A stretch of 63,330 nucleotides of DNA, filler included, from Chlamydiia bacterium (GTDB lineage: Bacteria > Chlamydiota > Chlamydiia > Chlamydiales > FEN-1388): NCBI GenBank assembly GCA_903848235.1. It is 14 parts of 14 records of this genome, joined end to end, with 100 filler letters (N's around TTAATTAATTAA, not from the genome) between each part and the next. Parts side by side here need not be neighbours in the genome. Positions count along the whole stretch, not along the records: positions 52,805 to 55,866 come from CAINFV010000217.1; 13 more parts are not named here. One strand, written 5' to 3'. The notes beneath the pieces are model-generated. The model worked only from the letters and a program-made list of their open reading frames with translations. It had not been told where the DNA came from and searched no databases. A program made the position numbers and the translations under genes. Below, one piece after another: positions 52,586 to 55,966 of this stretch. The first letter of the stretch is position 1; every line of letters starts with the position of its first letter.

Positions 52586-52804
52586 AGTTGATCATTGCTG
52601 ATCAATGACCAAGTTTTGGCCAAGAGCAACCACGCTCTTGAATTAATTTCCTGGCGCTGCGATTGCTCGCCGTCCGTTCCCCCGCGGGACAGACAACTAT
52701 CCCCNNNNNNNNNNNNNNNNNNNNNNNNNNNNNNNNNNNNNNNNNNNNTTAATTAATTAANNNNNNNNNNNNNNNNNNNNNNNNNNNNNNNNNNNNNNNN
52801 NNNN

Positions 52805-53054
52805 CAGGTGCGAGTCGTTCCCTTCTCATCGAATTCGATGCAGACTTTTCCGGATTTTTTGGCTGTCCATAGGAGGACCTCTTTAAACCGTCCGATGAGG
52901 GACCGATTGTTCATGCCTCGCCTCATGGCCGTGGTTATGCCATTGCCGTGGGGAGCATAATCTCCTATTGCGATACAGTCATACTTTTGGCACAGGGCGT
53001 GAGCCAAGGTAAACATAAAAGTCTTTGTCTGTTCTCGACGTTTATGAAGAGCTC
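52805..53054 (-). pseudogene. tnpB: IS200/IS605 TnpB fragment (RuvC-II region to start of zinc finger), interrupted by the intron
   Basis: ALHKRREQTKTF..YDCIAIGDY..RRGMNNRSLIGRFKEVL..DEKGTTRT. Confidence 0.85.
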
Positions 53055-55220
53055 TTGCGACACGAAGCTGTTGAGAAAAGTTGTCTCTCAATAGAAGAGT
53101 CCACCCTTACAGCGGGGTGAATCTAGGGCTCTGAATAAAGGAGCGAGCCCGACAACGTAGCGAAGGGGTTATTTAATCCCGGGATTAAAACCGAAAGGTC
53201 ACAATCCTCCTGACAAGCCATTACGAACAGGTAAGCGCTAGATAGTGAATACGGTGAAATTAAATAAATCTGCGATAATGACCGTAACATAAAGCAAGCG
53301 GAAATGGCTTTTACGCTTAAGCCAAACGGTAATGAGAATGGGTGCAACGTCTGAGCACTACGTTCACGCTGTCCATAGTTCTCCGGTCAAAAGCAGGCAC
53401 CTACCTTCACGTACTCTTCTCAATGGAACGTGGGAACCTCGAATCGCTCCCAGATCAGTCTGGGAAAGTATCTCGTAAGAGACTACCGAAAACGATCCGA
53501 GATTGGGATCCTGGAAAAAGCGAAAGCTGATCTGTAATGGGTCAGATACGGGTTGAAACATCACCCGACACGAGAGTGAGCAGACTTCCAAGTGGTTCCT
53601 CTTTGTGAGAGAACTCGAAGAACCTATTTAAACGAGGGAAATGCAAATGACGACTATGGCCTCCACAGTTGGTGCGCCCCCGGCGAGAACAATACAATGG
53701 TCTTCCATCAATTGGAAGGCTGTTCAAAATCTTGTATATAAGCTTCAAGTGCGTATTGCAAAGGCTATAAAGTTAGGTCACTACTGCAAGGCCAAAACCT
53801 TGCAATGGATCCTAACGCATTCATTCTATGCTAAACTGTTAGCGGTCAAACGTGTAACACAAAACAAGGGCAAAAACACCCCTGGAGTAGATCACGTCAT
53901 CCTAAAGACTCCCAAACAGAAAATACGAGCGGTAGAATCTTTGAAGAGACGGGGATATAAATACTCACCTCTTAAAAGAATCTATATTCCCAAGAAGAAT
54001 GGAAAACTTAGACCTCTAGGAATCCCTACGAAAATCGACCTAGCTCAACAAGCTTTACATTTGTTGGCACTCGAACCAGTAGCAGAAACACTAGCGGATA
54101 AGCAATCATACGGCTTTAGACCCAAAAGGTCTCTTCACGATGCCATTGAAGGATGCTTCAACGCATTAGCAAGAAAAGGATCTGCACAATGGATTTTGGA
54201 GGGGGATATCAAAGCCTGTTTTGACAAGATTTCTCATGAGTGGCTGCTAAAACACGTCATCATGGATAAAAAGGTGCTCAAACAATGGCTAAACGCTGGA
54301 TATATGGAAAAAGAAGTCTTTCATTGTACCTCAGAGGGAACACCTCAAGGTGGCGCAGCTTCACCATGTCTTGCAAATATCGCCCTGGATGGCCTTGAAA
54401 AAGCCATTCTAGCAATAGGCAAGAAAAAGGATAAACTCCACTTTGTGCGTTATGCCGACGACTGGATTTGCACCGCTTCTTCCAGGGAAATTCTAGAACA
54501 AAAAGTGCTCCCTACCGTTATCAGCTTTCTGAAGGAGCGAGGATTAGAACTCTCTAAAGAGAAAACTTTAATCACGCACATCAATGAAGGGTTTAACTTT
54601 CTCGGATGTAACCTGCGCAAATATAAGAAGAAACTTATCATAAAACCAGGAAAGAAAGGAATCAAAACCTTTCTAGACAGCATTCGAGAAACTATTATCT
54701 CCATGCGCGCGAGTAAGGCGGAAAATTTGATTTACATCCTTAATCCAAAGATCCAAGGATGGACCAATCATTACTGCCACGTAGTCGCCAAACAGATCTT
54801 TTCCAATATCGATTCAAGCATTTTCAAAAGTCTCTGGGCATGGGCAAAAAGAAGGCATCCCAACAAACGTCTCCAATGGATTAAAGACAAGTATTTTACT
54901 CGAATTAACCAAAGAGACTGGGTTTTCTTCTCGCATCAGAAGGGCAAACATAAGGATGAGCATAAGGATGAGCCTTTGCTCACTTTAAAATCTGCTTCCT
55001 CTACACGTATCATAAGACACGTGAAAATCAGAGCTGAGGCTAACCCCTATGATCCTAACTTCAAGAGCTACTTTCAAGAAAGGAAACTCAAGCAAAGAAT
55101 GTCTAAATATAGCCGGGCGCCCACAGGCGACCTTAGAGGGGCTCGAGCCGTATGATGGGAAACTATCACGTACGGTTCCTAGAGGGGCGGGTTGCGGCAA
55201 CGCAACTCTGCCTACTCGGC
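53055..55220 (+). mobile_element. group II intron (IIB, CL1-like) with intron-encoded RT
   Basis: 5' TTGCGACACG; EBS2 CATAAA 53288-53293; EBS1 GAGCAC 53353-53358; domain V GAGCCGTATGATGGGAAACTATCACGTACGGTTC; domain VI ending CCTACTCGGC. Confidence 0.93.
53641..55155 (+). CDS. ltrA: group II intron reverse transcriptase/maturase without HNH endonuclease
   Basis: NKGKNTPGVD, RPLGIP, YGFRPKRS, EGDIKACFD, GTPQGG, RYADD, LNPKIQGW; stop inside domain V. Confidence 0.96.
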   Translation: MQMTTMASTVGAPPARTIQWSSINWKAVQNLVYKLQVRIAKAIKLGHYCKAKTLQWILTHSFYAKLLAVKRVTQNKGKNTPGVDHVILKTPKQKIRAVESLKRRGYKYSPLKRIYIPKKNGKLRPLGIPTKIDLAQQALHLLALEPVAETLADKQSYGFRPKRSLHDAIEGCFNALARKGSAQWILEGDIKACFDKISHEWLLKHVIMDKKVLKQWLNAGYMEKEVFHCTSEGTPQGGAASPCLANIALDGLEKAILAIGKKKDKLHFVRYADDWICTASSREILEQKVLPTVISFLKERGLELSKEKTLITHINEGFNFLGCNLRKYKKKLIIKPGKKGIKTFLDSIRETIISMRASKAENLIYILNPKIQGWTNHYCHVVAKQIFSNIDSSIFKSLWAWAKRRHPNKRLQWIKDKYFTRINQRDWVFFSHQKGKHKDEHKDEPLLTLKSASSTRIIRHVKIRAEANPYDPNFKSYFQERKLKQRMSKYSRAPTGDLRGARAV

Positions 55221-55866
55221 TTCTTACGGGTTCTATCCGATGACGACATGCGCCCTCCAGTAAGAAAAGCTGATCAATTACAAATTGAAAGAGTTCCCTT
55301 CTGTCCTGATATGAAGGGCCTATCAATGAAAGGATATCATTTTTCAGCCACCTATAGAGGGTAATTACGTCTTCTGCTAGAGAAAATGCCTTTTCCAAGG
55401 CGATTTCAGCCTTTTCAAGATCCTCAAGTAATATTTGATGGTTCTGTTCTTGTTTCCACTTTCCTCTTGGGCATTGAATTTTATGCTTGAGCCCGTCAAC
55501 TACTTTGAGCGCTTCCGCCACTCGATTGTCCAAATAACAAACAAGCTTGTTAAATGGGTGTAGGGCATGAAAAACATCGCCGTGGCATTGGACATCAGGC
55601 CAAGCAACTTTTTGCCCTCTTCTTGCAGCAGGCCCTCCGTCAGCAATACTGTAATCTGGTCTAAGACCTTGTTTCTCAGAGAGTTCTAAAAGCCGCACTC
55701 CCCAGGTGTTGGCATCACACGTGTCTTCCAGACTGAGGAGATAGCAATACGTAGAGAACGTATCGCATCCTACTAAGACGGGATCGCCGGCCTGATAAAT
55801 CTCATCATGAGCCCCTACTTTTATTTTAGAGAGATTTTGATGACGATTGATGTCTTTGGCTCTATC
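55221..55866 (-). pseudogene. DDE transposase fragment interrupted by the intron
   Basis: frame open from contig end: GAHDEIYQ..PVLVGCD..STYCYLL, SIADGG, HGDVFH, HRIEPVR. Confidence 0.75.
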
Positions 55867-55966
55867 NNNNNNNNNNNNNNNNNNNNNNNNNNNNNNNNNN
55901 NNNNNNNNNNTTAATTAATTAANNNNNNNNNNNNNNNNNNNNNNNNNNNNNNNNNNNNNNNNNNNN

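Follow-up and report, generated by a model that had tools for sequence, protein, structure and literature searches.

A group II intron antisense to two insertion-sequence genes in a Chlamydiia draft genome: possible recombination between intron copies and co-changing boundary nucleotides

Introduction

How does a single group II intron come to be bordered by fragments of two different transposon genes that join in an open reading frame once the intron is removed? This question is raised by contig C217 of the draft genome of a Chlamydiia bacterium (GCA_903848235.1; referred to here as G000), which occupies positions 52805-55866 of the DNA that we analyzed, a window of 63,330 nucleotides. An earlier note on this DNA had placed a group II intron between a tnpB segment and a DDE transposase segment, and had seen in their in-frame join a case of intron-mediated domain shuffling. 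Our analysis points to a different reading, to which we assign a likelihood just short of even: the hybrid would be a real molecule, in which an intron residing on the antisense strands of two unrelated insertion sequence (IS) families served as portable homology and recombined these families in an environmental Chlamydiota genome, and the family of this intron would repeatedly have swapped its boundary nucleotides G1/A(n-1), a pair supposed to be universal, for U1 or C1/G(n-1). According to PMC4238363 and PMC4181065, the homing sites of bacterial introns are mostly intergenic or lie in other mobile elements.

Results

A group II intron without an endonuclease domain, opposite in strand to both flanking genes

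C217 (3062 bp) is an entire contig, which the earlier note had overlooked, and is bounded by N linkers on both sides. The window consists of 14 contigs; its 26 runs of N correspond to 13 linkers, each a six-frame stop of the same design. Since C217 is a separate piece between linkers, its neighbors in the window are not its genomic neighbors, and we ruled out the flanking genes of the window as context for it. Findings that span a linker, or that rely on neighbors across one, are unsafe in this window. The features of C217 and its limits are the following.

52705-52804, no strand: contig linker N44-TTAATTAATTAA-N44, left limit of C217
52805-53054, minus strand: part of tnpB, with 2 nt of codon 286 (Arg) and residues 287-368 (numbering of relatives of about 477 aa), from TnpB homology
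53055-55220, plus strand: group II intron of 2166 nt, beginning UUGCGAC and ending CUACUCGGC, from Rfam, aligned relatives and the limits of flank homology
53641-55155, plus strand: intron-encoded reverse transcriptase (RT)/maturase of 504 aa with YADD present, from TIGR04416, RVT_N, RVT_1 and GIIM
55143-55220, plus strand: domains 5 and 6 with the bulged A at 55214 (7 nt before the 3' end), from Rfam
55221-55866, minus strand: part of a gene for a 507-aa IS transposase-like protein, with residues 134-348 and 1 nt of codon 349 (Lys; P0121 numbering), from paralog homology
55867-55966, no strand: contig linker, right limit of C217

The proposed intron at 53055-55220 was borne out by covariance models and by its open reading frame (ORF). 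The core of domains 5 and 6 matched RF00029 at 55143-55220 with 57.2 bits (cut-off 40) over model positions 1-77 of 77, while domain 1 (D1) matched RF02012 (D1D4-7) at 53101-53238 on the plus strand with 44.2 bits (cut-off 34) and could be aligned along its length with that of 11 relatives. The RT/maturase, which is encoded in domain 4 and includes the maturase (X) domain, matched TIGR04416 with 352.3 bits (cut-off 300) and also RVT_N, RVT_1 and GIIM; profile searches of the intron-encoded protein matched no HNH or other endonuclease family. The 5' end was set at 53055, where relatives show an aligned [G/C/T]TGCGAC (GTGCGAC or CTGCGAC) and where the similarity of a 57-nt relic on contig C96 to the intron also begins. 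A start at 53057 (GCGAC), with the preceding TT shared with native tnpB, was rejected because the relatives align [G/C/T]TGCGAC at 53055. The 3' end at 55220 coincides with the end of the Rfam model, and homology to an uninterrupted paralog of the right-hand gene on contig C58 begins at 55221. C217 thus carries a real group II intron, which is endonuclease-less, of a mobile kind by its sequence, and probably active. The intron and its ORF lie on the plus strand and both flanking genes on the minus strand, an orientation that had also escaped the earlier note.

The left flank is a fragment of a multi-copy tnpB element

The assignment of the left flank to a minus-strand tnpB proved correct. Read on the minus strand, 52807-53052 shares 94-98% identity with full-length TnpB proteins (best 429-488 aa) and contains the motif CIAIGDY; on the plus strand, this fragment forms the 5' exon of the intron. 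The flank shares its 94-98% identity with TnpB proteins of the IS200/IS605 type, 465-488 aa in length and equipped with OrfB_IS605 and a Cas12f1-like TNB domain, whereas the C217 copy, cut by the intron, keeps just 82 residues. Only residues 287-368 are present, and RuvC-I is absent, as had been stated; the zinc finger (CHAC, from residue 369), which had been counted as part of the fusion, falls past the end of C217. We recovered 317 related proteins at E <= 0.01 among 330 candidates, and PF07282 and/or PF01385 were found in 118 of the 120 relatives listed. One relative (P0005) reached 138 bits against NF040570 (NCBIfam guided_TnpB; cut-off 100); the fragment alone matched no family in profile searches.

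Four contigs of G000 (C282:2-220, C273:4534-4737, C216:1750-1848 and C99:11646-11744) carry pieces of the TnpB C-terminus at their ends and terminate in the last 33-73 codons of tnpB, and a further C-terminal piece of 26 codons lies near the start of C104 (259-336). Judged from these pieces, the tnpB element is present in multiple copies in G000 and collapses the assembly. Two other remnants were noted: an N-terminal TnpB piece of 47 aa with 70% identity at C61:15220-15360, and a 200-bp tnpB relic beside a large helicase-like gene at C251:390-598.

The right flank belongs to a transposase-like family without a profile

On the right, the minus strand holds an open frame of 215 codons that is 82% identical to the C58 paralog (C58:1-1149) and, on the plus strand, constitutes the 3' exon of the intron. 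These data uphold the placement of a transposase-like gene on the minus strand; the label "DDE" found no Pfam or NCBIfam family behind it. Profile searches with both the flank and the full-length P0121 gave no significant family in these two libraries (best ISLre2, E = 0.015), and a PDB profile search with the 507-aa protein returned no relative. The family is large, with 2163 relatives at E <= 0.001 among 8000 scored candidates, typically 507 aa in length and residing mainly on contigs of about 2 kb. The 120 listed relatives measure 393-550 aa, and 119 of them lack any Pfam domain. Residues D154, D209, D230 and E436 are invariant across 44 aligned sequences, and the N-terminal region resembles a helix-turn-helix. 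In the nearest Atlas clusters, DDE_Tnp_ISL3 is found in 17-26% of the members. An AF2 model of the 507-aa protein reached a pLDDT of 71.8 with a low-scoring core; Foldseek returned nothing at E <= 0.001 for it (weak rows for Hermes and ISCth4), and VIA matched only a helical hairpin. A transposase role of the "DDE" kind is likely for this family, which may represent an unclassified ISL3-like IS family. The names "Chlamydiae bacterium" and "Parachlamydiaceae bacterium" occur among the relatives of both flank proteins and point to Chlamydiota.

In C58, an IS110-family (DEDD) transposase gene (C58:1173-2045, minus strand) directly adjoins the 507-aa transposase-like gene; by this adjacency, ISs appear to be clustered or nested there.

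Both genes are occupied by the intron family in other samples

We compared C217 with four sequencing runs (X1-X4), which are stored as Logan contigs and not as reads. The best run contains a fraction of 0.44 of the C217 words, and stretches of C217 that are uncovered in X2-X4 carry no evidential weight. The native sequences of both genes diverge from C217 exactly at 53054/53055 and 55220/55221. Native tnpB reads GAGCTC/TTCCCAGTG in contigs of X2-X4 (KTLGRALHK in the proteins); the contigs of X2, X3 and X4 track the tnpB flank to 53056 and then continue with CCCAGTGTC, which encodes RWGKRQKTLGRALH, that is, native TnpB. Two examples are contigs of 790 bp (depth 30.5) and 1812 bp (depth 21.8), with 4 differences each. 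The depth of such native tnpB contigs in X2-X4 is 22-30, compared to 3-5 for pieces identical to the C217 intron. The native transposase-like gene reads GATATT/TTC in C58 and in a 1623-bp contig of X1, encoding EPVRKYLENH. Each gene therefore continues with its own sequence at the boundary, in line with the claim that the flanks derive from two different transposon genes, which are unrelated to each other.

In X1, a 234-bp contig bridges tnpB and the intron (52853-53086; 202 and 32 nt, with 25 differences and 2 gaps), so that the tnpB-intron junction is also present in a diverged lineage. In X3, two contigs have immediately upstream of 53055 a sequence that agrees, without a shift in register, with the 5' exon of the native transposase gene at 16 of the 17 nt from -30 to -14. 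On the strength of these contigs, the intron family occupies both genes at exactly these positions. The earlier proposal of two intron copies in similar sites and in the same codon phase of two IS families hence stands in part: both sites are occupied elsewhere and share phase 1/2 and a TTC after the cut, and little else about them is alike. X1 also holds several variants of the intron, among them two 212-bp contigs that cover 53479-53690 and show 8 and 17 differences.

No further close copy of the C217 intron was found among 41 genomes including G000; it was present only in G000, with short or weak matches in G018, G003 and G038. Two exact-pattern scans of genome_contigs gave 0 matches. A search of metagenome_contigs identified 588 of 606 stretches as relatives, of which 80 were kept, and no close copy was among them (best RT identity 62%). 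The relic on the minus strand of C96 (5907-5963; locus L003/L010) starts with TTGCGAC, is 96% identical to the 5' end of the intron, shows a garbled continuation to about intron position 95 and lies in an intergenic region directly after a terminator-like hairpin. We rejected it as a second copy, since this relic of 57 nt (up to about 95 nt) has neither domain 5 nor an RT.

At least one other group II intron family is represented in G000, by at least three copies, three of which differ in their 3' flanks; its body is unassembled (C103:1-141, the last 141 nt of C37, C122:1-87 and C82:2-74). Contigs C103 and C37 break off within this intron, exactly 141 nt from its 3' end, and in C122 the same end lies 87 nt from the start. 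RT pieces on C23, C82, C34 and C20 are only 33-38% identical to the RT of C217.

The proposed exon-binding sites fit the tnpB side

For the assignment of exon-binding sites (EBS) and their targets, the intron-binding sites (IBS), we used 12 related introns whose 5' exons are known, aligned their D1 and scored pairing in fixed register. The proposed elements in C217 are listed below.

53041-53046, plus strand: proposed IBS2, TTTATG, exon positions -14 to -9, with 6/6 pairing to CATAAA at 53288-53293
53049-53054, plus strand: proposed IBS1, GAGCTC, exon positions -6 to -1, with 5/6 pairing to GAGCAC at 53353-53358
53288-53293, plus strand: proposed EBS2, CAUAAA, intron positions 234-239, the homologous stretch having been compared in 12 introns
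53351-53359, plus strand: EBS1 hairpin loop CUGAGCACU, intron positions 297-305, with the stem AACGU/ACGUU, from own-exon pairing in 12 introns

The variable D1 loop is assigned as EBS1 on its pairing with the last six bases of each intron's own exon, which was 6/6 in seven of the 12 introns, 5/6 in four and 4/6 in one, against a chance level of 3% (6/6) and 29.5% (5/6 or better) for non-own pairs of exon and intron. EBS2, the stretch that follows a conserved CGU, was less sharp (own mean 5.1, non-own 4.6). For the EBS1 and EBS2 of C217, pairing reaches 5/6 and 6/6 on the tnpB exon, 4/6 and 4-5/6 on the native transposase sites, and 2/6 and 3/6 on the X3 exon. The likely target of this copy is accordingly the antisense strand of tnpB, on moderate evidence (a joint chance of about 1 in 20). 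The idea that both sites encode a similar R-A-L motif did not hold, since the transposase site encodes V-R-K-Y-L and the proposed exon-binding sites fit the tnpB side only.

Several other approaches were discarded. A naive search for any complementary 5-7-mer and a minimum free energy fold of D1 were too noisy, a first scoring scheme had a high background (own 5.1, other 4.4) and was superseded by fixed-register scoring, and GGGCUCU at intron position 72 was rejected as EBS1, since in the Rfam alignment of D1 it forms one strand of a helix. A variant of the intron in X2 carries a paired 1-nt deletion and 1-nt insertion in the EBS1 loop (53351 and 53356), which changes CUGAGCACU to UGAGCUACU; read by hand, this loop still pairs with AGCTC of the tnpB exon in another register. 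It suggests a drift of target specificity within the population.

Origin of the hybrid flanks

Ectopic recombination between dispersed repeats, such as ISs or intron copies, leaves one copy whose left and right flanks stem from different loci. We propose that C217 arose in this manner. The intron RNA would recognize its target DNA by base pairing; one copy would have targeted, on its antisense strand, the tnpB gene, which encodes the RNA-guided nuclease of a multi-copy IS200/IS605-type element, and a second insertion of the same intron family would have hit the antisense strand of the 507-aa transposase-like gene. Being antisense, the intron would simply destroy both host genes. The two copies, with 2.2 kb of shared sequence, might then recombine in the cell to form a deletion or inversion junction, and the resulting contig would combine the 5' exon of one site with the 3' exon of the other. 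A 2.2-kb repeat at two loci is the standard substrate of such events; unlike the established cases, recombination is a proposal for C217, and neither the reciprocal product nor the parental copies were seen in G000. We rate real recombination between two intron copies as an even prospect.

The assembly itself bears on this reading. G000 is a fragmented metagenome draft (284 contigs, 2.35 Mb), whose contig ends show exact overlaps of 141 nt in 96 oriented pairs and no other overlap length above 10, the signature of a unitig assembler with k = 141. C217 runs through both intron junctions, with flanks of 250 nt (tnpB) and 646 nt (transposase-like), while the other intron family breaks contigs; this favors an unbranched path and hence a real molecule.

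A chimera is the strongest competitor and has an appreciable, though lesser, chance of being correct. Under this explanation, the assembler would have merged tnpB-intron-tnpB with transposase-intron-transposase, from one genome or from related strains, and a single path would have been left after graph cleaning. It gains from the finding of both junction types with their cognate 5' exons in other samples, from the coexistence of several intron variants in X1, and from the make-up of C217, a short contig with repeats for both flanks in a fragmented bin. On the other hand, the assembler acts like a unitig builder, and at the other multi-copy intron of G000 it broke the contigs and did not read through. 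A chimera would also require that both "wrong" branches be removed and both "right" ones kept. The tnpB flank, moreover, shows 4 differences in 252 nt to the dominant native tnpB and, at 250 nt, is longer than one 141-nt overlap.

A number of observations count against recombination as the origin of C217. The intron start is joined to a non-tnpB exon in X3, and in X4 a contig (record 27) with 1 difference over 53055-53219 has 63 upstream nt that do not align to the tnpB flank; since other junctions thus exist in X3 and X4, an assembler could mix them, for example by tip clipping at low coverage. The coverage does seem low, and such clipping could leave a chimeric path. The X3 contigs are themselves imperfect witnesses, as the two agree at 72% only and the proximal 13 nt of the X3 exon are unreliable. 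The 3' junction at 55220/55221 is bridged by none of the 32 records listed in X1-X4 (124 more are unlisted). Pairing with the tnpB exon as good as that of C217 occurs in 29.5% (EBS1, 5/6) and 15% (EBS2, 6/6) of non-own pairs. Finally, C217 is only 3 kb long; because it is short and contigs below 1.5 kb are absent from the G000 bin, the absence of reciprocal pieces is uninformative.

Far less probable than either is an origin in a single event, for instance an ectopic insertion in which the tnpB 5' exon was carried over, by incomplete reverse splicing or by RT template switching with the donor exon copied in, or an insertion into an existing tnpB/transposase junction. The poor pairing of the transposase site with EBS1 and EBS2 makes a non-standard route conceivable, and the stretch of tnpB in C217 is just 250 nt long. 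The transposase-like 5' exon that is joined to the intron start in X3 in the same register speaks for the existence of a normal, complete insertion, and it is improbable that a junction already existed with both boundaries at exactly these positions. PMC2504315 states that bacterial group II intron insertion does not convert flanking exons, which weighs against the carry-over models.

The open joined frame does not denote a fusion gene

Deletion of 53055-55220 leaves a joined minus-strand frame that is open over 298 codons with 0 stops, as had been claimed; a shift of the 5' boundary by 1 or 2 nt introduces 4 stops. The frame is open because the intron interrupts the two genes in an identical codon phase (1/2; A/GA in Arg-286 of tnpB, A/AA in Lys-349 of the transposase-like gene), a 1-in-3 coincidence. 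As the DNA stands, the transposase frame continues for 77 codons into the intron and then meets a stop. Since the intron is antisense, the RNA of the minus strand is the reverse complement of the ribozyme, and the intron cannot be spliced out of the mRNA of the flanking genes; consequently, no DDE-TnpB fusion protein can arise, and intron-mediated domain shuffling finds no support. The open frame cannot, on this analysis, carry any meaning at the protein level.

Relatives of the two parts were inspected for proteins that join them. No intron-less homolog spanning both flanks was present in the relatives listed for each part (the search did not extend to longer forms of the 507-aa family), and none of the 120 listed 507-aa-family relatives (of 2163) contains a TnpB domain. 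The 120 listed TnpB relatives (of 317) measure 165-488 aa, and the 20 that we read either begin with an ordinary TnpB N-terminus or are fragments. Short TnpB matches were rejected as junction ORFs, as all 14 that we read either have ordinary sequence before ALHKRREQ or start after it. The antisense read-through ORF over the 3' junction, used as a query, yielded 14 candidates, none at E <= 0.001. The open frame might speak for a natural DDE-TnpB fusion gene into which a single intron was inserted. Such a gene, which the earlier note had also judged less likely, is thus very unlikely, since each intact gene continues with its own sequence at the intron ends and both genes lie antisense to the intron.

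Covariation of the first and penultimate nucleotides in the intron family

The boundaries of the C217 intron, UUGCG ... GC, depart from the consensus 5' GUGYG ... AY 3'; the positions concerned are 53055 (nucleotide 1) and 55219 (penultimate). We examined the same two positions in 33 introns of the family whose ends were located by motifs that leave both positions free (loci L011-L090 and L096). G1 was combined with a penultimate A in 26 introns, U1 with G in six and G1 with C in one, and no mixed combination occurred among the 33. C1 with a penultimate G was read by eye in L012 and in the intron of the Simkania plasmid pSn. In a quick RT tree with long branches, the U1/G rows are scattered and the starred branches require at least four changes; L083 (U/G) is sister to L035 (G/A) with a support of 100. 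The boundary of C217 therefore looks like a compensated variant and not a defect. Its covariation fits the contact between the first and penultimate nucleotides of group II introns that is cited in PMC4238363.

Discussion

The closest annotated relative of the C217 intron is that of plasmid pSn of Simkania negevensis Z (ltrA, WP_013935017.1), with an RT identity of 62.8% over 100% of the query. Like C217, it matches the Rfam D1D4-7 and D5/D6 models, ends with CCUACUCGGC, starts with a pyrimidine (CUGCGAC) and resides in a member of the Chlamydiota. In contrast to C217, it has a C at position 1 and lies between tra-region and hypothetical genes on a plasmid and not in an IS gene.

RmInt1 in ISRm2011-2 of Sinorhizobium meliloti (bacterial class D/IIB3) offers a parallel of another kind, as described in PMC4238363 and PMC4181065: it likewise lacks an endonuclease domain and resides in the transposase region of a multi-copy IS, and both introns depart from the AY 3' consensus. 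This likeness is one of pattern. In the same sources, splicing of RmInt1 is described as essential for IS mobility, which implies its removal from the transposase mRNA, whereas the C217 intron is antisense to its hosts. Among the papers listed in a literature search, none was, by title, on a group II intron inside tnpB.

C217 represents ordinary biology, in which selfish elements are nested in each other, and it provides a new pair of hosts for a group II intron. It also serves as a caution, since short repeat contigs in concatenated draft genomes can mimic gene fusions. The transposase-like family on its right flank, with more than 2000 homologs recognized by no profile library, may interest specialists, as may an intron lineage in which the first and penultimate nucleotides change together. 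If our reading of the boundaries is true, the swaps to U1 or C1/G(n-1) would constitute natural covariation evidence for the contact between the first and the penultimate nucleotide.

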